From the IMG/VR virus record IMGVR_UViG_3300031088_000008, positions 256,001 to 320,000 of that record: 64,000 nt of DNA; one strand, written 5' to 3'. The notes beneath the pieces are model-generated. The model searched no databases. It was given only the letters and a program-made list of their open reading frames with translations, and was not told where the DNA came from. The translations under genes were made by a program, and so were the position numbers. Shown in pieces: positions 28,775-62,409 of the stretch; the stretch's first letter is position 1, and the number at the start of each line of letters is the position of its first letter. The DNA is from a virus. Taxonomy: Duplodnaviria; Caudoviricetes.

Positions 28775-29069
28775 GTTCCGCCCAGGGCTTCAAGCCCATT
28801 CGCTCCTGGAATGCTGTCAAGCAAGCGATGCGACGGTCGGGCGTTTTGTCATAGATGTATCGGCGCATGTCAGCTTCCAGGCGCTCCACCGGATTCTCTT
28901 CCACGATGGTGACTTCATCGGGGAGAAGTTCCAGCAAGTTCTCATCACAGTAGAGACGACCATCCATCGTGATGTCGGTGACGGTGGCAAATCGGATCTT
29001 GTCCCCATACTTGTAGGAAACCTCAAGACCAACTGTGATCCACTTTTTGTTTGTATCAAAGACGTCCAT
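28725..29069 (-). CDS. hypothetical protein (SH3-like N-terminus)
   Basis: TAATG coupling to gltX. Confidence 0.65.
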   Translation of the reverse strand: MDVFDTNKKWITVGLEVSYKYGDKIRFATVTDITMDGRLYCDENLLELLPDEVTIVEENPVERLEADMRRYIYDKTPDRRIACLTAFQERMGLKPWAEREEEKAAARRKELGFD

Positions 29070-30349
29070 TACTTGGCATCCCTTATGCGACCCAGAGTCT
29101 GCTCCATTCCTAGGAGGACCATTACATCAAAGATCGGCGGACTGATTGTGCTGCCGGTCAGTGCTGCGCGAAGAACACCGGCGACCACGCCCAGCTTCAA
29201 ACCCATTACGTCTGCGTAGGCCTTGACACGGTGCTCCAGGTGCTCCTTGTCCCAAGGTGTTCCAACCAGCAGCTCATCCAGTTCCTCGAGGATCTTGCCG
29301 TCTAGCTTTTCGCCAGCCTTTTCCTCGATGAAGATGGGTCGCAGGTCCCAGAGAAACTGGGTTCCCTTCGCGAGAGCGTTGAGGTCCGTGGAACGCTCAC
29401 GGAGCGCCGTCATTGCCCCAACAAGTGTGGCATCGTCCCAGTCAATGCCCTGCTCATGCAGAAGCGGTCCAACCCAGTTCCTTGCAAGGATTTCCGGCTC
29501 GGTGTTCCTGATGTAGTGGCCGTTGATGCTGGCCAGCTTTTTCCTGTCCAGACGAGCTGCACCCTTGCCCACGTCCTTGATGTCAAACCACTCAATGGCT
29601 TGCTCCATCGTGAACAGCTCATCGTTGCCATGTCCCCAGCCCAGTCGTGCCAGGTAGTTGACCATTGCGGGTGCCAGGATGCCCATGTCCATCCGGTACT
29701 CGTCAACCGATGCCGCGCCGGTTCGCTTGCTGAGCTTTTTGCCATCCTCGCCGTGAATCAGGGGAATGTGACCATACCGGGGAATGGGCCAGTTCATTGC
29801 CTTGTAGATGCTCAGCTGACGGAAGGCATTGTTCAGATGGTCGTCACCGCGAATCACATGAGTAACACCCATGTCGTGATCATCCACAACCACTGCCAGC
29901 ATGTAGGTTGGCGTGCCATCGCTTCGGAGAATCACAAAGTCATCGATATCCTGGCGCCACGTTACCGTGCCTTGTACCAAGTCCTCGATGGTCTGCTCGC
30001 CCTTGATGCCACGGATTCGGACAGCCCGCTGGCCATCTTCATTGACGTTGTTGGGATCATAATAGGCCATGCCCTGGTCGATCAGCTGATTGGCTACCTC
30101 GACGTGACGGGCGGCATTCCTGCTCTGCAGCACGATATCCTCGTCGGGATCCAGCCCCAGCCAGGCCAGCCCGGTGAAGATTGCCTCGATGGCATCGGGA
30201 GTGTTTCGTTCCTTGTCGGTGTCCTCGATGCGGATCAGGAACTTTCCACCCATATGCCGAGCATAGAGCCAGTTGAAGAGTGCCGTACGGGCTCCTCCAA
30301 TATGAAGGTAGCCCGTTGGACTTGGCGCAAAGCGTGTCACTACTGTCAT
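29069..30349 (-). CDS. gltX: glutamate--tRNA ligase
   Basis: TRFAPSPTGYLHIGG, RIEDTD, VVVDDHDMGVTHVIRGDDH, KKLSKR, LRAALTG anticodon domain. Confidence 0.96.
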   Translation of the reverse strand: MTVVTRFAPSPTGYLHIGGARTALFNWLYARHMGGKFLIRIEDTDKERNTPDAIEAIFTGLAWLGLDPDEDIVLQSRNAARHVEVANQLIDQGMAYYDPNNVNEDGQRAVRIRGIKGEQTIEDLVQGTVTWRQDIDDFVILRSDGTPTYMLAVVVDDHDMGVTHVIRGDDHLNNAFRQLSIYKAMNWPIPRYGHIPLIHGEDGKKLSKRTGAASVDEYRMDMGILAPAMVNYLARLGWGHGNDELFTMEQAIEWFDIKDVGKGAARLDRKKLASINGHYIRNTEPEILARNWVGPLLHEQGIDWDDATLVGAMTALRERSTDLNALAKGTQFLWDLRPIFIEEKAGEKLDGKILEELDELLVGTPWDKEHLEHRVKAYADVMGLKLGVVAGVLRAALTGSTISPPIFDVMVLLGMEQTLGRIRDAK

Positions 30350-47025: not shown

Positions 47026-47687
47026 CAGTTGAGCAACCTATCGGGGTTGGTAAGCAGGATCTCCCGCTCCATTTCAATATTGCCGCGGACCACCTCGCTC
47101 AACGCTTTGGCCTGATGGGTGCTGAACATTGTCTCGGGGTCCAGCTTTTCCAGGAAGTCAAGCCGCCCCTTCAGGTAACCCTCGCGGCCATAGCTTTGAA
47201 ACTCTCGCCAGACATCGCGAGCGTACTCCAGGTACTTGCAAGTGGGAGCGAGAAAGATGCTCATGTCGGCATCGTTGATGATTGAAAAGATCAGCGCCTG
47301 TCTGGGAGCCACCTTGTGGTACTTGGTGGTCATGATCAGATCCGTGACAGTGTTCTGCTTCAGCAGCGCGTGACGATGAATGTCCCGTCGTCGGGCATAT
47401 TCAACCCACCGTGCCGCGCTTGCTTCTTCGTTGTCCTTTCGACCAACCTCATAGACCACATCGTGGTAAAAGAGTGCGAAGATGACGAGTGGCTGGTAGC
47501 CATAGTGGCGGAACACAAACTGGATGGTCTCCAGAATGTGCTGCCACGTATGGTAGTGTCGTCCAGCAGGTGATCCCTGGTAGGCCGCACGGATGGCGAG
47601 ATACTCCCGCCAATCCGGTTTCAGCCCAAATTCCTTGTGGGCCTCATTCCAAGCCCACGCGAGATAGAGATCCTGCCTTACTTTCAT
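47025..47687 (-). CDS. metal-dependent HD phosphohydrolase (COG4339-like)
   Basis: RHYHT..HI, FYHDVVY, DNEEASA, TKYH, DADMSI, EY...V.REF. Confidence 0.88.
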   Translation of the reverse strand: MKVRQDLYLAWAWNEAHKEFGLKPDWREYLAIRAAYQGSPAGRHYHTWQHILETIQFVFRHYGYQPLVIFALFYHDVVYEVGRKDNEEASAARWVEYARRRDIHRHALLKQNTVTDLIMTTKYHKVAPRQALIFSIINDADMSIFLAPTCKYLEYARDVWREFQSYGREGYLKGRLDFLEKLDPETMFSTHQAKALSEVVRGNIEMEREILLTNPDRLLN

Positions 47688-49342
47688 CGCTCTATCGTAA
47701 CATCAGTTGCCTGTGCGTCAACTTCATAACGACGGAGCAGCTTGACAGTGTTCATCAGACCATAGGCGGCCGTGAACGCACCAAACCGGGGACCATCGCT
47801 GGAACCCAAAAAGCACTCATAGAGGGCTTGGAACCAGCTTCGAAGAGGATCAAAGCCGTGTGCCTTACCCACCTCGTAGACTTGGAACTGATATGCTTCA
47901 GCGTCCAAGCCCGGCTCCATGAGGACCAGACGATCCGCCAGATCCATGAACGCCGCTTGCTCCTGGTACGTTGGAGTCCTCAGATGCTGGCTGTAAAGCC
48001 CCTGAGCGGTTGCGTATGCAGTCACACGATGGGCCATCAGATGCACCCATGCCTTGTCAGCATTGCTGAGCGGCCTCTGGGCATCCAAGTAACGGACAAT
48101 CTCTTCCGCGTTGGTGCTCTGTGCGACGATCGCCAGATTCAAGAGAAGCGTGAAGGGAATGTCCGGAACCTCGCTGGTGTATCCATCGGCCTTGAAGAAC
48201 CAGGGACCATCGTTGAAGCCCAGTTCCTTCTGGCGCAGCTTGATGTACTCATCCTCGAACTTGGGGACGAGTTCCGCGTGAAGGGGCTTGGCAGCCTTGG
48301 GGTTCTGGAACATGAACAACTGAAGCGAGCCCGTGGTTCCATAAGTCAACCACTCCTCGATTGTGAAGCCGTTGCCCTTGCTCTTGCTGATCTTGGCACC
48401 ACCCTTGTCGAGGAAGAGTTCGTAGGTCATGTTCAGCGGGGGAGTGCCGCCGAGGATACGACAGATCTTGCTCGACGCCTTTACGCTGTCGATCAAGTCC
48501 TTTCCACTCATCTCATAGTCAACGTCAAAGTAGAGCCAGCGCATTGCCCAGTCCACCTTCCACTGAAGCTTGCTGCCACCGTTGCCCATCTGGACAATCC
48601 CGGTGTCAAAGTCCTTTCCATTGTTGTGGACAACCAGGCACGTTGGCTGATTCTCGGGAGTCACTGGGTAGCAGTAATCCTGAGTCAGCCGGCCCTCACG
48701 AAGAGGAAGGAATGGACTGTAGGTTGCACGGCGCTCTTCACCCAGCGTGGGAAGCATCACGTCTTGAATGGCATTGAAGTTTTCCGCCACGTGAGTCAGC
48801 ATGGCGTTGAACCTGCCGCTCCTGTAATAGCGCGACGAGCTCACAAAGGAAACCCGGCTGCGATCGGAACTGGCACCAACCACCGAGCCATCATAGGTCT
48901 TCAGGATGTTGTCCACGAAAGCGATCAGACGATCGTTGTTGGCCTCCGCAAAGCTGACCTGATCGACCATCATCTGCGTGGCGCCAGCGTTTTCCTGATA
49001 GGGGCTGGGGATGGTGCTCAGCGGCTTACCCAGATGATCGTTCATCCATTCCGGCAGACCATCGGGAACCTTCCGCATCGCATCATAGTCATCGCTGAAC
49101 ATGATCAGTCGAGTGTTGTAGGCGTTGTCCGTGAGTGCGTCAAATGCCTTCATGACCCACAGGGTGCGGACGACCTCTGCGAACGTTCCAATATGCGGAG
49201 CGCCCGAGGGACCATAGCCGGTCTGAAAAGTCACAGTGTCGCCGGCCACCTTTCCCTTGCGGGCAATGTGATCAATCAGCTTCCGTGCCTCTTGAAACGG
49301 CCAGCTCTTGGCTTGCTCAAACATATTGGTCCTTTCTATCAT
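47684..49342 (-). CDS. lysS: class I lysine--tRNA ligase
   Basis: TGYGPSGAPHIGTF.EV, SDDYD..RKVP, KLQWKVDWAMRW, KISKSKGNG, GPRFG. Confidence 0.96.
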   Translation of the reverse strand: MIERTNMFEQAKSWPFQEARKLIDHIARKGKVAGDTVTFQTGYGPSGAPHIGTFAEVVRTLWVMKAFDALTDNAYNTRLIMFSDDYDAMRKVPDGLPEWMNDHLGKPLSTIPSPYQENAGATQMMVDQVSFAEANNDRLIAFVDNILKTYDGSVVGASSDRSRVSFVSSSRYYRSGRFNAMLTHVAENFNAIQDVMLPTLGEERRATYSPFLPLREGRLTQDYCYPVTPENQPTCLVVHNNGKDFDTGIVQMGNGGSKLQWKVDWAMRWLYFDVDYEMSGKDLIDSVKASSKICRILGGTPPLNMTYELFLDKGGAKISKSKGNGFTIEEWLTYGTTGSLQLFMFQNPKAAKPLHAELVPKFEDEYIKLRQKELGFNDGPWFFKADGYTSEVPDIPFTLLLNLAIVAQSTNAEEIVRYLDAQRPLSNADKAWVHLMAHRVTAYATAQGLYSQHLRTPTYQEQAAFMDLADRLVLMEPGLDAEAYQFQVYEVGKAHGFDPLRSWFQALYECFLGSSDGPRFGAFTAAYGLMNTVKLLRRYEVDAQATDVTIER

Positions 49343-54977: not shown

Positions 54978-55343
54978 TTACGCCGCGGCGGGCTCTGCAG
55001 CCGGCTCGTCCTTGTGGGCGACCGTTGCCGAAGCGCCCTCGACGTTGCCCTCGGTGCCTGCGGCGGTCAGCGCGTACCAGCCGTACTTGTCAGCCTTGAG
55101 GCCGAACTCGCTGGCGTCTGCGAGGATTGCCGATGCACCCAGCTTCTCGAGCTCCTTGTCGGAGACCTCGATGTTGACGCCCTTGGCCTTGGTGCCCTTG
55201 AGCTCGCTGAGCACGTGGGGGCCGGCCTTCCGATCGGTCGGACGCATGAACAGCGTGTTGTCCTTGATCTCGAGACGCAGCTTGCCACCCTTGCGGCCCT
55301 GGATCGCGTCGGTTGCTTCCTTGTTGAACTGTACGATACGCAT
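54978..55343 (-). CDS. KYGW-family protein (paralog 2)
   Basis: KLRLEIKDNTLFMRPTDR...FGLKADKYGWYALT; terminator 54933-54962. Confidence 0.8.
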   Translation of the reverse strand: MRIVQFNKEATDAIQGRKGGKLRLEIKDNTLFMRPTDRKAGPHVLSELKGTKAKGVNIEVSDKELEKLGASAILADASEFGLKADKYGWYALTAAGTEGNVEGASATVAHKDEPAAEPAAA

Positions 55344-55591
55344 AACTTCGATCTCCACTTGTTGTCTTCAACATCACCGCCCGGCGCGTTGTTATGTCAA
55401 CTTAGCGGATGCTTCCTAAACGTCAACAGTCAATGTCACTGTTTTTACATTCTTTTTACAACTGGTAATTGGCAGCCAAGGAAAAACCGCAGAATTCCAT
55501 ACACTTATGCAGGAATCCCACGGCAATCTTTGGCTAACAAAGTTGAAGCTGGTGTGGAACTTTTACACCAGCCAGTACGCAGATTGTGTAG

Positions 55592-56046: not shown

Positions 56047-56466
56047 TTAGCGGCAGTCGCGAGTCAGAGCGCGTCCTGCAAGTGCGCCGCCACCGGCACC
56101 AACGACGGTACCAAGAGTGCGGTCGCCCCTGCTGTCAACGGTACGTCCCAGCAGACCACCGGCGATTGCACCCATAACAGTACCCGTGGTACCATTGTTG
56201 CAACGCTGGTTGAAGCGGTTGTCGTAACGGCGGTCGTAACGATTGGTGCGGCTGTTCCAACCGCGCTGATCGTAATAGCGACGATCATTGTAGCGACGGT
56301 CGTGACGGTCATAGCGATTGTCATAACGGCCATTGTTGTAACGGCTGTCATAACGCTGGTCATAACGCGAACCGTTCCAACCCCACTGGTTGTAATGCTG
56401 TGCCGAAGCGGCAACTGGCATACCCAGGGTTGCGATTGCGGCGATAGCCATAATCAGTTTCTTCAT
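56047..56466 (-). CDS. glycine-zipper 2TM surface protein with Arg/Tyr/Asp repeats
   Basis: Signal peptide, RYD repeats, CNNGTTG...GAIAGGLLG...GTVVGAGGGALAG. Confidence 0.88.
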   Translation of the reverse strand: MKKLIMAIAAIATLGMPVAASAQHYNQWGWNGSRYDQRYDSRYNNGRYDNRYDRHDRRYNDRRYYDQRGWNSRTNRYDRRYDNRFNQRCNNGTTGTVMGAIAGGLLGRTVDSRGDRTLGTVVGAGGGALAGRALTRDCR

Positions 56467-56519
56467 AAGAATTACTCCTTTTTCTCAAATTACTTAGCTT
56501 TCTTATACACTTTTGATCC

Positions 56520-56535
56520 TTAACCAGGAATTAAC
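56520..56535. promoter_or_regulatory. CtrA-box match (TTAA-N7-TTAAC)
   Basis: TTAACCAGGAATTAAC in the divergent intergenic region. Confidence 0.5.
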
Positions 56536-56632
56536 CCTGGTGCAAAACACAAGAAAAAGAGACATTTAGAGCAATCTTTTTCATGGAAATAAGAATATTG
56601 AAGCGGAAAGCGTTGTTCTGTATAAGGGAGGA

Positions 56633-56920
56633 GTAGGCAGGAATGCTTGCAGACTAGAGACGCCCTACTAAGTGGGCACCGACTGCCGGGCTTACGAGGC
56701 AGCGTTGGAAGGCGTACGATAACAAGCCGGGTGGTCAGGATCTACCGATCAATCCTGGGTCAGCGGGCCGTTACTGTTTGGTCCGCGAGTTGGCGACACT
56801 CTAAATGTCGCAGTGGTTGTTGGACCACTCTAAAACTGTAAACCAACGCGGGGAAATCCGCTGGGGTGTCATAGCCCCGAGGGGAGGGCACTGGTCTAGT
56901 CAACCAAACGCTCTCCCCAG
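56633..56920 (+). ncRNA. large structured ncRNA (5' domain)
   Basis: TTGAAG-17-TATAAG promoter at 56598-56626; at least 8 consecutive hairpins; no credible ORF. Confidence 0.6.
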
Positions 56921-56926
56921 ATTATT

Positions 56927-57019
56927 GGAGGAGCCGCCTTATTGGTAGGGGCGCTCTCGCATATTGGGCAGGCGTAACCAGCGAGAGAGTGAAGCGGGGT
57001 TCGAATCCCCGTCCCTCCA
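56927..57019 (+). tRNA. tRNA-like element with non-canonical anticodon arm
   Basis: Acceptor GGAGGAG/TCCCTCC-A (one mismatch), D-loop TTGGT, 7-bp stem CTCTCGC/GCGAGAG enclosing 20 nt, T arm CGGGG-TTCGAAT-CCCCG, then a T-run. Confidence 0.65.
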
Positions 57020-57031
57020 CTTTTTTATTGA

Positions 57032-57355
57032 TTATGCGCGGAAGTCTTCCTGCGGCGCAAAGCCATTGGTGTGATCACTGGAGACCTGAACCGTCAGGAG
57101 CACCTCGGGATCGTGGAAGTTGGGTTCCTCGCTGGTGGTCAGATGGGCAGACCAAGTCTGGTCCATTATCTGATACTTGTAGCCGTTGAGAAAGATGAAC
57201 TTTCCCACGTCGGGAACGTGGCTCATGGGGATTGCACCCAGGGAGACAAAGCGTTCCGGCTGGACTCGACCCAGGCCTTCCTGCGCGGCCACTTCCTCAT
57301 TGCATTCCAGCCAGGTCTTTTCCCGCCGGAAGTTGACGATGATGTAGCTGTCCAT
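57032..57355 (-). CDS. hypothetical protein
   Basis: Operon position. Confidence 0.65.
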   Translation of the reverse strand: MDSYIIVNFRREKTWLECNEEVAAQEGLGRVQPERFVSLGAIPMSHVPDVGKFIFLNGYKYQIMDQTWSAHLTTSEEPNFHDPEVLLTVQVSSDHTNGFAPQEDFRA

Positions 57356-57356
57356 G

Positions 57357-57566
57357 TTAGGAAGCGTAGCCTGGATTCACAGCCGCGCTGAGCTCCTGCG
57401 AGCTATCAAAGCCCATCTGGTAATCCTTGGTACCATCCCAGTATGCGTCGAGCATCTCGAGATGACCTTCCCCAAAGTAACGAAGGCCATCGAGGCGACC
57501 CTGTTGGAACTGGGCCTGGCTGGTTGGCGTATAGCTTGCGATCTGCGTGTTCATAGTATTCAGCAT
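57357..57566 (-). CDS. small hypothetical protein
   Basis: F.QG..DG...Y..GF pattern. Confidence 0.6.
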   Translation of the reverse strand: MLNTMNTQIASYTPTSQAQFQQGRLDGLRYFGEGHLEMLDAYWDGTKDYQMGFDSSQELSAAVNPGYAS

Positions 57567-57585
57567 ATTGAAGTTCCCCTAGCTG

Positions 57586-57876
57586 TCAAGCTTCATCCCA
57601 AATGTTGTTGCCTGCGCGGTCGGTTGTAAAGGTCCCAAAGCCCCAGTGAAACCGGATACGATCCCATTCCTGGGGAATTGGACGATCGTCTTCACGACGG
57701 TTTGGACGGTTTGCAGCCATTTCCCGCGCGGACTTCATCAGGTCATCGGGCTTGACAAAGCGCGGATCGGACCAGGGAAGCTGGAAGGATCCTACTTCAT
57801 TTCCCTTTAGAAAAAGCGTTACCTTTGTTGGTCGCTTGTGATCTGAGTCTCTACGTCCACGCGACATACACTGCAC
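57586..57876 (-). CDS. hypothetical protein
   Basis: Promoter cassette, AGGAG. Confidence 0.65.
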   Translation of the reverse strand: MQCMSRGRRDSDHKRPTKVTLFLKGNEVGSFQLPWSDPRFVKPDDLMKSAREMAANRPNRREDDRPIPQEWDRIRFHWGFGTFTTDRAGNNIWDEA

Positions 57877-57947
57877 TCCTGTTCTTCCTCCTCTCTAATA
57901 GACTGCAAACCAGTGTTGTTCAACCAGTTATTTCAGTCAGACATAGA

Positions 57948-57992: not shown

Positions 57993-58286
57993 TTAGGCGA
58001 CCTTGGCGGTCGGCCCACGGCCCTGGTGACCCGGGGTCAGGGCGAACCAGCCGTACTTGTCGGCGCGCAGCCCATAGTTACCGGCCGTCAGTTCCATGCC
58101 CTCGAGCTCGACCTTGCCGGCGTTCGACATCTCGACCAGACGCTCGGTCTTGGGGAGATTGACCGGCTTGGCGCGGCCCGTGGGGCGGATGAACATCACG
58201 CCGTCGACCAGCTTGGCGCGGATCTTGCCGTTGGTCGAGAACTTGTCCTGCGAACGGGCCGCAGCGTTGAGAGTGATTGTGGTCAT
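57993..58286 (-). CDS. KYGW-family protein (paralog 3)
   Basis: LNAAA...KIRAKLVDGVMFIRPT..VNLPKTE...YGLRADKYGWFALT. Confidence 0.8.
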   Translation of the reverse strand: MTTITLNAAARSQDKFSTNGKIRAKLVDGVMFIRPTGRAKPVNLPKTERLVEMSNAGKVELEGMELTAGNYGLRADKYGWFALTPGHQGRGPTAKVA

Positions 58287-59475: not shown

Positions 59476-59808
59476 ATGTCAAGCGAAACCAGTCTCACCA
59501 GTATTTACGTCATCGGTCCTGCGGAAGGACCATATAAGATTGGCTACAGCGGCAACCCCAGCCACCGTTTGTCCACTTTGCAAGTGGGAACCACGGACTT
59601 TCTGCACCTCCACTACAGAGAGGAAACAGAGACCAGCAAGGCCAAAGTGATCGAAAAGCTGATCCACCGGCAACTGGGGCACAAGAGGATCCGTGGGGAG
59701 TGGTTTAACGTCACACTTGACGAAGCGATCTCCGAGGTCAAGTTCGCCTTTATCCGTTGGGAAGACGAACCTGCCTTGGAGTTCCGCTTTAAGCGCCGGC
59801 TACTTTAG
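59476..59808 (+). CDS. GIY-YIG / T5orf172-like protein
   Basis: IYVIG, YKIGYS.NP..RL..LQ.G, EK.IH..L...R.RGEWF. Confidence 0.88.
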   Translation: MSSETSLTSIYVIGPAEGPYKIGYSGNPSHRLSTLQVGTTDFLHLHYREETETSKAKVIEKLIHRQLGHKRIRGEWFNVTLDEAISEVKFAFIRWEDEPALEFRFKRRLL

Positions 59809-60284
59809 GCGGCCAGAACCTTGTTGATGGTTGCGCTGGCCTTGCCCTTGTCCAGCGTGGCGCCGAACACGGCGACCAGGTGCTTCATCAGCATACCCAC
59901 CACGCCCTTGGGACGCTCGCCCATCGTGTTGAGTGCGGCCTCGATTTCACCGCGAATCTCGTCCTCGCTGGGCTGCTTCGGCATCAGCGACTCCAGGATC
60001 TCCAGCTCACGAAGGCTCTTGGCGTCCGTGGGCACGAGCGCCAGGGTGTCCCGGACTTGCTTGATGCCCTTTTGAACAGCCGCGATGGCGTCCTGCTCAT
60101 CGGCCTTGACCGTCGAGAAGTCCACACTGCGCTGATCTTCCGGCAGCTTTGCCTGTTCCTTGATCAGGCGATCCTTGGCATTCGCCGTCGCCAGAGCCTG
60201 GATGCCCTGAAACGAGCCGGCCAGTGGATCACGAGCCTTTCGCAGTTCGAGGGTTTTGGCGTTCAGCGCCACGAGAATGCTCAC
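59805..60284 (-). CDS. GatB/YqeY domain protein
   Basis: ELEILESLMPKQ.SE.EI, G.LMK.L...D...S. Confidence 0.8.
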   Translation of the reverse strand: MSILVALNAKTLELRKARDPLAGSFQGIQALATANAKDRLIKEQAKLPEDQRSVDFSTVKADEQDAIAAVQKGIKQVRDTLALVPTDAKSLRELEILESLMPKQPSEDEIRGEIEAALNTMGERPKGVVGMLMKHLVAVFGATLDKGKASATINKVLAA

Positions 60285-61351: not shown

Positions 61352-61666
61352 TCACGCGCCAGTCAATAACGGATACTGGCGTCCCTCAACATAAGCCAGT
61401 TTTGCCTGCAAGTCGTCGCGATTGTTTTCCACCCAGCAGTAGAGCATCATCACGTATTCGTAATGGGCAACCAGAGGCCCAATATCCTCGGGCCACATGT
61501 CATTGGCTGCACGGTTCATGGTGATCATGTCCGTGATGATGCCCCATCGGTCCGTTCGACCACGAAGCCACTTGAGTGCGCTTTCGCGACATACCAGGGA
61601 AAACCCCTGGAAGTCCTTGTAGGTCTTCACAGGGGCCGGCCCATCACTGAACGTCCAGGGGATCAA
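61352..61666 (-). CDS. hypothetical protein
   Basis: Overlaps the stop of the 2H gene. Confidence 0.6.
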   Translation of the reverse strand: MIPWTFSDGPAPVKTYKDFQGFSLVCRESALKWLRGRTDRWGIITDMITMNRAANDMWPEDIGPLVAHYEYVMMLYCWVENNRDDLQAKLAYVEGRQYPLLTGA

Positions 61667-62409
61667 ACAAAATAGTCCTTGCCAAACGTCAAGTGCAGGT
61701 TCCAGTTCGTGGGGATGTCAAACTCCTCACGGATCTGGCGCAGCTTGGGAGCGTTCACGACAATGAACCAGTGAGTTGCCTTCCGATCCCCAGTGGTGTC
61801 GCCGGTGTAGCGAACCTCAGGAGTGTAGGTGAACTCAACCACCTCATTCTCATACTTGCCCCACAGTGCGTTACGCTCCGCCTTGGGAACATCCAGCATG
61901 TCGTTGACGCCACGAGTGATCGTGATGTGCGGAGTGTGGCTGGGAGCCTGCAGACCAAAGCCCGGCTCCATCGTGATGTTCATCAACTCCCGGTTGACCC
62001 ACCAGCGATAGTACCGTGCGATCTCAGGATCCACGTTGGCAACCGCCCAGTAGTGATACTGATTGCGGTAGCGCGCCATACGCTCCAGCGTGGAACGATA
62101 CTCCTGTCCACCCTTGGCGTTGAGGAGCACCTTTGCGAGCTTTCGACCCGCAAGCTGTGCCTCGACCACGTCGGCTTCCGTATAAGCGTCCTTGATAGCA
62201 CGGAGCGCATCGTCGAGCACAAATCCATCGTTACCGCGCAACGTGAACTTGTCAACGTCCAGCTGGTTTACGGCGAAATTGTGGAACTCACTGGCCACCC
62301 GATCCTCACGCTTTGCCAGTGCGGCGTTGCGGTTGGGTTCATAGTGGATCGTGCCTCGTCCCACGAGGGTTCCTGCTGGCCGGGCCAAAAGAGTGGTGCG
62401 CTTCGTCAT
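61663..62409 (-). CDS. 2H phosphoesterase superfamily protein
   Basis: Two HxT motifs, PHITI and LHLTF, ~75 aa apart. Confidence 0.7.
   Translation of the reverse strand: MTKRTTLLARPAGTLVGRGTIHYEPNRNAALAKREDRVASEFHNFAVNQLDVDKFTLRGNDGFVLDDALRAIKDAYTEADVVEAQLAGRKLAKVLLNAKGGQEYRSTLERMARYRNQYHYWAVANVDPEIARYYRWWVNRELMNITMEPGFGLQAPSHTPHITITRGVNDMLDVPKAERNALWGKYENEVVEFTYTPEVRYTGDTTGDRKATHWFIVVNAPKLRQIREEFDIPTNWNLHLTFGKDYFV

Follow-up and report, generated by a model that had tools for sequence, protein, structure and literature searches.

A conserved noncoding RNA locus of jumbo phages that ends in a tRNA-shaped module lacking an anticodon loop

Here, we describe a noncoding RNA (ncRNA) locus in a viral genome from IMG/VR (record IMGVR_UViG_3300031088_000008; 416,714 base pairs (bp), rated 90% complete), of which we analysed a window of 64,000 nucleotides (nt) corresponding to bases 256001-320000. 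Unless genome positions are indicated, all coordinates refer to this window, and all parts of the RNA lie on its plus strand. The locus at 56598-57026 consists of a sigma-70-type promoter, a series of adjoining hairpins of approximately 290 nt and a cloverleaf of 93 nt at 56927-57019, and it almost certainly encodes a real, conserved ncRNA with a transfer RNA (tRNA) module that cannot decode. The gene is present as a single copy in each of five related phages, both of its structures are conserved, and it is represented in contigs assembled from RNA libraries. The explanation we favour, with moderate confidence, is that the locus encodes a two-part phage RNA, in which an ornate 5' domain is combined with a non-decoding tRNA mimic, and that this RNA is conserved in a small clade of jumbo phages. 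An initial annotation of the stretch had proposed an uncatalogued, structured and promoter-driven ncRNA whose 3' end is a tRNA mimic with an enlarged anticodon arm, a proposal which our analysis supports.

Relatives of the locus were found by aligning two paralogous proteins that flank it with their counterparts in Sinorhizobium phage Phosso, which led to four IMG/VR jumbo-phage records of 277-465 kb, here called G001-G004 (the loci in G001 and G003 carry the labels L151 and L153, respectively); counts out of five given below refer to these four phages and the phage under study. A blastn search with positions 56600-57030 yielded one match at the syntenic place in each of the four genomes, and identity is 80-82% over the cloverleaf in G001, G003 and G004 and 74% in G002, where the match is longer (query positions 214-422). 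Gene order around the RNA is conserved, and in all five phages the RNA is antisense to its neighbours and located between the two paralogs. The flanking proteins are 28-87% identical across the relatives, those adjoining the RNA 33-64%. Two covariance models, R1 for the tRNA-shaped module and R2 for the last three helices of the 5' domain (H8-H10), both indicate a single copy per genome: with R1, every one of the five genomes has one match, at 105-120 bits, and the next best are ordinary tRNAs of at most 39 bits; R2 gives one match of 74-90 bits in each phage. Collecting homologs and inspecting them for covariation, as the initial annotation had suggested, gave the decisive evidence that the locus is more than chance: all four relatives have retained it, with base changes that compensate each other.

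Outside this group, we found very little. Neither blastn nor R1 (nothing above 37 bits) nor R2 identified a homolog in Phosso or in Agrobacterium phage Atu_ph07. Phosso shares the neighbourhood of the RNA (the two paralogs, YqeY and the 2H phosphoesterase), and the syntenic gap in its genome is an AT-rich spacer. GenBank phages gave no blastn match to the locus, exact and two-anchor DNA patterns derived from this phage alone retrieved no relatives, and searches for relatives via the protein encoded at 57032-57355 and via a 560-amino-acid protein likewise found none. The pattern CACTCTAAATG..CACTCTAAA had five chance matches in viral contigs and 55 loci in metagenome contigs, of which only one, L023, was real; L023 is a metagenome contig with a 99.6% copy of the locus. 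A degenerate pattern combining the rod tip described below with the T loop retrieved only the same four records among viral contigs, and in 185,579 species genomes it had three chance matches within coding DNA. In a sample of 151 Alphaproteobacteria, R2 gave one match of 25 bits with approximately 33 candidates scored per genome, and the RNA was not found there. Lastly, no description of this RNA was found in the literature searched, a search that excluded supplementary tables of phage ncRNAs.

The 3' module extends from G1 to A73 (56927-57019) and has a 7-bp acceptor stem, a D stem of 3-4 bp with an 11-nt D loop containing GG, a 7-bp rod, a 7-nt variable region and the T arm CGGGG-TTCGAAT-CCCCG. 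The GG of the D loop and TTCRAAT of the T loop are invariant in all five phages. The rod, CTCTCGC/GCGAGAG, takes the place of the anticodon arm and carries a loop of 20 nt in this phage and of 19-20 nt across the five. Its apical sequence, GGGCAGGCGUA(A/U)CCA at 56966-56980, is identical in all phages except for one A/U position; no other part of the locus is as conserved as this 15-nt tip, and the stem that carries it covaries. Among the 26 pairs of the cloverleaf, nine show compensatory change across the five sequences, and 92.2% of the alignment cells are paired, as opposed to 40-55% in controls slid by one to three columns. None of 500 shuffles reached the observed values on four of five measures; for the fifth, the number of further pair types, 220 of 500 did. 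In the acceptor stem, GGAGGAG/UCCCUCC is replaced by GACAGAG/CCCUGUC or GACGGAG/CCCCGUC, the rod stem changes at four of seven pairs and the T stem at two of five, and an A6.C67 mismatch in the acceptor stem is kept in all five phages. The residues U-1, G1, A73 and C74 are likewise kept throughout, and the module measures 92-93 nt. C74 is followed by six T residues (57020-57026), a T run which is found in this phage only. CCA is not encoded in this phage, and G004 alone encodes ACCA.

Deletion of any segment does not leave a conserved loop of the form U33-anticodon-R37. As no 7-nt anticodon loop can be drawn, the module is unable to decode. The D-loop word AATTGGTA of the module recurs in four of the 55 tRNAs of this phage (two Leu, one Pro and one Asn) and in four of the 62 tRNAs of Phosso (all Leu), and in none of the 30 tRNAs of Atu_ph07. 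By the identity rules of leucyl-tRNA synthetase, charging with leucine does not depend on the anticodon, and a leucine-tRNA-type D loop together with A73 would allow such anticodon-independent leucylation of the module. We regard this as a lead only; no leucyl-tRNA synthetase domain was found in the phage genome. With lowered thresholds, ARAGORN made calls that contradict one another, a tRNA-Asn(att) and a permuted transfer-messenger RNA (tmRNA) with the tag ALSHIGQA, and these calls were set aside.

The 5' domain begins with H1 (56633-56650), a 7-bp hairpin closed by the GNRA tetraloop GGAA. GNRA-capped hairpins immediately before the motif GACUAG are present in three of the five phages, namely in this phage, in G002 (9 bp, GCAA) and in G004 (9 bp, GAAA), and their stems are unrelated. 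GACUAG itself (56652-56657) is single-stranded, occurs in all five phages and is complementary to the apical loop of H10. The sequences suggest that it probably pairs with this loop (CUAGUC or UUAGUC) in a contact that would close the domain; the contact is inferred and not shown, because both sides are invariant and hence offer no covariation. Similarly, the putative H2 helix (56662-56677; CCC/GGG, extended here to GCCC/GGGC), with its conserved 8-nt loop YRCUMAGU, falls in invariant alignment columns, and its stem never varies. H3 (56683-56702; CUGCC/GGCAG, loop GGGCUUACGA) was delineated by eye and by regular expression, MAFFT misaligning it. Its stem differs in each phage and always pairs, the other versions being CUUCC/GGAAG, CUACC/GGUAG, UCGGU/ACCGA and UUCAAUU/AAUUGAA.

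The middle of the 5' domain is variable. H4 (56736-56757; CAGGAT/ATCCTG) and H5 (56763-56786; GCGGGCC/GGTCCGC) have counterparts in G001 and G003 only, and H6 (56793-56811; GCGACA/TGTCGC, loop CUCUAAA) occurs in none of the relatives. An 11-nt stretch of H6 also appears in the anticodon arm of a phage tRNA(CUA), and among 23 CTCTAAA sites, three sit on a stem of at least 5 bp, H6 included. The word CACTCTAAA occurs twice, at 56797 and 56826, a repeat which is not conserved in the relatives. H7 (56813-56847) forms a pseudoknot in this phage and in G002, with GUGGU/ACCAC at 56813-56828, GUUGG/CCAAC and a loop containing UAAAA. The version in G002, GUGGU/ACCAC with GCUGG/CCAGC, shows one compensatory pair; the other three phages have a plain hairpin, and the UAAA motif of the region is kept in all five. 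H8-H10 form a conserved block, consisting of the GNRA-capped H8 (56848-56861; GCGGG-GAAA-TCCGC, with GAAA, GCAA or GUAA as the tetraloop across the five phages), H9 (56863-56878; GGGGT/GCCCC) and H10 (56881-56918; GGGGAGGGC/GCTCTCCCC, apical loop CUAGUCAA), the tip of which reads CUAGUC, or UUAGUC in two phages. Twelve of the 22 pairs of this block show compensatory change and 94.5% of cells are paired, as against 34-49% in slid controls, and none of 500 shuffles was as good. The self-complementary sequence CUAG is present in both conserved single-stranded motifs, and this is the sole hint toward a homo-oligomeric cage. A linker (56919-56926) ending in U-1 (56926), which is kept in all five phages, leads to the tRNA-shaped module; it measures 8-22 nt in four phages and is approximately 190 nt longer in G003. 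By eye, the insert in G003 (L153:1300-1495) contains a 58-codon open reading frame (ORF) on the opposite strand.

The promoter TTGAAG-17 nt-TATAAG spans 56598-56626 (-35 at 56598-56603, -10 at 56621-56626). All five phages have one copy of the pattern TTGNNN-N17-TATAAN before the RNA, and the spacers have diverged. An automatic promoter scan did not list it, because the rule of the scan requires T at the last -10 position. The plus strand folds with -171.7 kcal/mol (z -3.34, with none of 100 shuffles as good) and the minus strand with a z of -2.15. The claim of the initial annotation that the locus has no credible ORF was borne out under table 11, TAG=Q and TGA=W; the presence of two tRNA(CUA) genes in the genome was the reason for trying the two alternative codes. 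There is no conserved reading frame either: an indel separates this phage from G002 just before a conserved UAA, and translated matches occur in all six frames. At gathering scores, Rfam 15 had no match in the 64-kb window, and at E <=10 on 56400-57200 it gave only tRNA-Sec (18.7 bits, cut-off 47) and mascRNA (17.2 bits, cut-off 42.5), both on the cloverleaf. At E <=1, the four homologous loci gave no match from the tRNA clan apart from tmRNA at 12.7 bits on one of them, and no GOLLD or ROOL. Promoter, hairpins, CACTCTAAA repeat, cloverleaf, the word GGAGGAG and the T run are all present in this phage where they had been noted initially, but the T run, the CACTCTAAA duplication and the hairpins at 56763-56811 as such are not kept in the four relatives. 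GGAGGAG, at 56627-56633 directly after the -10 element, is identical to the 5' acceptor strand at 56927-56933. As a side observation, the heptamer after the -10 element matches the 5' acceptor strand in three of the five phages and changes in step with it (both read GACAG in G001 and G003), and G002 and G004 have no such match.

Public sequencing runs provided a further line of evidence. Twenty runs contain part of a 3.5-kb stretch at the locus; eight of them have at least half of the sampled words, and six of these eight are RNA libraries. Contigs from four of four RNA-library runs, belonging to four studies, cover 56643-56894. By contig alignment, one contig spans 56643-56886, a variant with 28 differences in 251 nt spans 56644-56894, and further contigs lie at 56694-56851, 56658-56852 and 56652-56861; the strand is not shown for any of them. 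Three differences are listed among the variants (56835, 56836 and 56839), and all of them are located in the pseudoknot loop. RNA-library contigs also cover both flanking paralog genes. Stretches without contig cover are 56521-56637, the tRNA module at depth and 57106-57924; such gaps and depths are not interpretable and were not used. A low-depth contig of X13 ends at 57020 and then runs on unlike this phage; it comes from another relative and gives no strand. Taken together, the contigs fit transcription of the locus, and we draw no more from them.

Based on these features, we propose that a host-type sigma-70 promoter drives the synthesis of a transcript of approximately 390 nt with two modules. 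The 5' module (approximately 56633-56926, 290 nt) would adopt an ornate multi-helix fold with GNRA-capped hairpins, a pseudoknot and probably the closing contact between GACUAG and the H10 loop. The 3' module (56927-57019) would present a full upper tRNA body, with the rod and its invariant 15-nt tip in the place of the anticodon arm, and would not be able to decode. Its tRNA shape may recruit the maturation enzymes of the host; RNase P would then cleave at the U56926/G56927 junction, and 3' trimming and CCA addition would complete the ends, so that a stable 5' RNA is released along with a tRNA mimic of 93 nt. As for the invariant tip, it would act as the working surface of the mimic and bind either a protein or another RNA loop. 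Whether the RNA matures through tRNA-processing enzymes is, in our judgement, evenly balanced, and among the suggestions of the initial annotation, that of an RNase P-processed precursor appears the most plausible as a maturation route. Features that fit an RNase P substrate are present in all five phages, namely U-1, G1 and A73, together with a 7-bp acceptor stem that stacks on a T stem of 5 bp. Most tRNAs of the phage are without an encoded CCA, and no CCA-adding enzyme domain was found in its genome, which means that the phage tRNAs would likewise need host maturation. We also consider, more tentatively, that the mimic acts on a tRNA-binding factor, for which its tRNA shape would make it a decoy or an adaptor. 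Co-transcription of the two modules, RNase P processing, CCA addition and any role in tRNA biology or the translation machinery are read from sequence features and are put forward here as proposals.

Several points weigh against this explanation. The ends of the transcript, the cleavage by RNase P, the addition of CCA and any charging are predictions. The two modules may be independent genes, because approximately 190 nt with a possible opposite-strand ORF lie between them in G003. The covariation is derived from five sequences, two of which, G001 and G003, are close to each other, and the family is small, comprising five genomes and near-identical environmental copies. The RNA-library contigs may derive from DNA, and they show no strand, ends or level. 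The L023 strain, which is 97% identical over 6.3 kb, has a single substitution in the RNA. This change, 56887 G>A, replaces a G.U pair of H10 by A-U and counts in favour of the RNA, but the low number of differences does not. One difference compares with a median of eight per 394-nt window, and nine neighbouring windows are as low; as neighbouring windows at 56110-56610 diverge equally little, the low divergence is not specific to the RNA. Finally, a search for antisense targets of the rod tip within the phage genome found a longest complement of 10 nt, which is at chance level, and none of at least 11 nt, and the idea of an antisense target was dropped.

The RNA might instead stay as a single uncut molecule of approximately 390 nt, in which the rod tip kisses the H3 loop and the 5' domain holds, senses or acts on its own 3' end. 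The invariance of the tip, the single conserved promoter and the short linker in four of the five phages would suit such an arrangement, and between the H3 loop and the tip, 8 bp can form in G002, 6 bp in G001, which differs from G002 by a U>A / A>U double change, and 5 bp, or 7 bp with a bulge, in this phage. Shuffled loops reached these complementarities in 4, 30 and 71 of 2000 cases for G002, G001 and this phage, respectively. However, only 4 bp can form in G004 and only 2 bp in G003, the H3 loop of G004 would be a better match for the tip of the phage under study than for the tip in G004, an equally good pairing partner for the tip exists in the invariant 5' strand of the D stem (ACGCCU with AGGCGU), and approximately 190 extra nt separate the modules in G003. 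We regard an uncut RNA as rather unlikely, although it is the main alternative to our reading. Going one step further, one might speculate that the 5' domain is an RNA machine working on its own tRNA mimic, either with the tip docked on the H3 loop in a T-box-like manner so that the 3' end is sensed, protected or altered, or as a multimer formed through CUAG that shows several mimics to the translation apparatus; we give this idea only a slight chance. Another view reduces the tRNA-shaped module to a signal for processing and stability of the 5' RNA, in the manner of mascRNA and MALAT1, with no function of its own. A tRNA shape at the 3' end of a longer structured RNA, the U at -1 and the weak match to the mascRNA model at 17.2 bits agree with this. 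RNase P, however, needs no anticodon arm, and yet the 15-nt tip is the most conserved sequence of the locus while its stem covaries, and the A6.C67 mismatch is kept in all five phages. The invariance of the tip thus speaks against a mere processing signal, which we consider unlikely, though a little less so than the RNA machine.

Other identities fared worse. Considering its size of approximately 390 nt, a T arm and acceptor 3' strand at its end, a 5' word that could pair with the 3' end in three of the five phages and a UAA in a loop, the RNA might be taken for a divergent tmRNA used for trans-translation, and the initial annotation had listed a tmRNA-like molecule among its options, with a long-range pairing of GGGAGGA with the 3' end that would create a G3-U70 pair. 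This pairing is not supported, as GGGAGGA lies at or before the expected transcription start and a matching 5' word is present in only three of the five phages. Moreover, pair 3:70 is A-U in two phages and C-G in three and never G-U, there is no conserved tag frame, and the 3' end forms a complete cloverleaf in its own right. The models for tmRNA and for alpha_, beta_, cyano_ and mt-tmRNA (RF00023, RF01849-51 and RF02544) had no match at E <=10 on 56400-57200, the best on the homologs being the 12.7 bits mentioned above; the matches to RF00023 elsewhere in the genome are ordinary tRNAs, and ARAGORN at default settings finds no tmRNA. True two-piece alpha_tmRNA genes exist elsewhere in G001 (78680-79042), G003 (258482-258804) and G004 (392220-392585), with 77-103 bits, and in Phosso (349553-350242), with 108 bits. 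Searches of this phage (90% complete), G002 (60% complete) and Atu_ph07 yielded no such gene. The tmRNA genes of the other phages agree with the tmRNA reported for Sinorhizobium phage AP-J-162 (PMC11242549). We give a tmRNA identity virtually no credence.

A Y-RNA-like partner of a phage Ro60 protein, another of the initial options, appears very improbable. The phage does encode a Ro60 orthologue with TROVE and vWA_Ro60 domains (genome 21883-23604, minus strand), and Ro60/TROVE proteins of some jumbo phages are described as working with a tRNA-like partner RNA in cells (PMC7824862). However, the YrlA and Y_RNA models have no match at the locus at E <=10, and the Ro60 gene lies approximately 290 kb away. 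TROVE was detected in six of seven genomes searched, including Phosso and Atu_ph07, and both of these lack the RNA, which speaks against a partnership with Ro60. The topology also appears reversed when compared with that of YrlA, with an open acceptor end and a closed rod, and all five phages have other sub-threshold YrlA-like candidates of 30-39 bits elsewhere in the genome. Among these, we noticed a full-length YrlA-like match of 33.8 bits (cut-off 69) within the tRNA cluster (genome 352715-352832, minus strand). A decoy for anticodon nucleases, as initially envisaged, is not supported, given a mimic without an anticodon loop and the absence of the look-alike hairpin 56793-56811 from the relatives. 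Lastly, neither ARAGORN nor the Rfam tRNA model calls the cloverleaf, as might be expected for a decayed tRNA beside chance hairpins, and one could also think of a misread coding or cis-regulatory stretch. Covariation excludes the decayed tRNA pseudogene with random hairpins that the initial annotation had raised against itself: 21 of the 48 pairs counted show compensatory change, and the locus combines an invariant loop, a conserved promoter and a single syntenic copy in five phages. No ORF opens under three genetic codes. Like the tmRNA, such a reading can be practically dismissed.

In comparison with known systems, the two-part RNA that we favour resembles GOLLD and ROOL, which are phage-encoded, multi-helix RNAs with pseudoknots that often lie by tRNA genes and whose function is likewise unassigned. 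GOLLD sometimes carries covalently linked tRNAs in its linker, according to the respective reports (bioRxiv 10.1101/2024.12.08.627333; PMC5737381). However, no Rfam model of these families matches here at E <=10, or at E <=1 on the homologs, the 5' domain measures approximately 290 nt as compared with approximately 580 and more than 800 nt, and the linked module is an anticodon-less mimic rather than a working tRNA. Anticodon-less tRNA mimics of phages reportedly include RNA1-3 of T5 and stable RNAs of the T4 tRNA cluster. Similar to these, the module described here keeps the upper tRNA body, has a rod in place of the anticodon loop and is kept in related phages, but it differs in that a structured RNA of 290 nt with a promoter of its own is attached to it and in that it lies outside the tRNA cluster. 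As in MALAT1-mascRNA and NEAT1-menRNA, a longer ncRNA finishes in a tRNA-like structure, which in these two cases RNase P uses to make the ends (PMC8457004); these RNAs are eukaryotic, whereas the phage module keeps a full D arm and has a long conserved rod. With YrlA and Ro60 it shares a tRNA-like domain in an ncRNA and a Ro60 gene in the same genome, but there is no model match at the locus, the Ro60 gene is not adjacent, and in two relatives Ro60 occurs without the RNA. The 3' ends of plant RNA viruses also show pseudoknots and hairpins followed by a terminal tRNA mimic (PMC8127992), but these belong to viral RNA genomes and are charged by anticodon or acceptor mimicry, whereas here a separate gene of a DNA phage is concerned, so that this is an analogy only. 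The closest kinds are GOLLD/ROOL with linked tRNAs and the anticodon-less mimics of phages, and by model and sequence tests the RNA is a member of neither. What sets it apart is the ornate domain joined to a tRNA mimic, together with the invariant tip.

To our knowledge, large and intricately folded RNAs of bacteria and phages are few, and most of them turned out to be ribozymes or to form assemblies with unusual chemistry. The RNA adds a covariation-supported case to the anticodon-less tRNA mimics of jumbo phages. It is a look-alike that keeps every mark for being handled as a tRNA yet cannot decode, and its invariant tip must be recognised by something. Jumbo phages with such mimics also carry dozens of tRNAs, aminoacyl-tRNA synthetases, a tmRNA and Ro60. 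At 390 nt, the RNA is small enough for direct tests, which could show what part such mimics play in the takeover of host translation or in the defence around it.

The genome belongs to a jumbo myovirus, as indicated by PHROGs matches to a large terminase, major head protein, portal, tail sheath and baseplate wedge. By large terminase identity, its closest cultured relatives are Sinorhizobium phage Phosso (62%) and Agrobacterium phage Atu_ph07 (55%), followed by the PA5oct group, and the closest cultured relatives of this jumbo-phage clade infect Rhizobiaceae (Sinorhizobium, Agrobacterium). The RNA locus occupies a 565-bp gap without a credible ORF between two minus-strand genes. The gene at 56047-56466 codes for a glycine-zipper protein, which looks secreted, has a repeat region rich in R, Y, D and N and a C-terminal Rick_17kDa_Anti domain, and has homologs in G001 and G003 only. 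The gene at 57032-57355, next to the RNA, could not be assigned to a family in a family search. Further out, two paralogous small proteins with the motif ADKYGW(F/Y)ALT (54978-55358 and 57993-58286, minus strand) flank the RNA in all five phages and are also present in Phosso. No Pfam family was found for the paralogous flank proteins at E <=0.001 (54978-55358 was not among the proteins scanned), and a protein atlas contained only unnamed clusters for the two neighbouring proteins. Window ORFs read normally under table 11. Other genes of the window, all on the minus strand, code for a class Ic synthetase of the Glu/Gln type (29069-30349), a class I lysyl-tRNA synthetase (47684-49342), a YqeY-domain protein (59805-60284) and a weakly matching 2H-phosphoesterase (61663-62409), the last three of which keep their place in the relatives.

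ARAGORN at default settings finds 55 tRNAs in the genome and none in the window; the tRNA cluster lies at genome 352-364 kb, and the RNA locus is outside of it. Among the 55 tRNAs are the two genes with the anticodon CUA, that is, amber suppressors (genome 111086-111159 and 330698-330776, minus strand). We also noticed well-formed T arms outside the ARAGORN calls, eight in this genome besides the RNA locus, 14 in Phosso and seven in Atu_ph07. Those in this genome lie at 352393-361882 and 323853 (minus strand) and at 29646 (plus strand). Several of these extra T arms sit in tRNA clusters and have the D-loop word GGGTTATC in common; they may represent unusual tRNAs or further tRNA-like RNAs.

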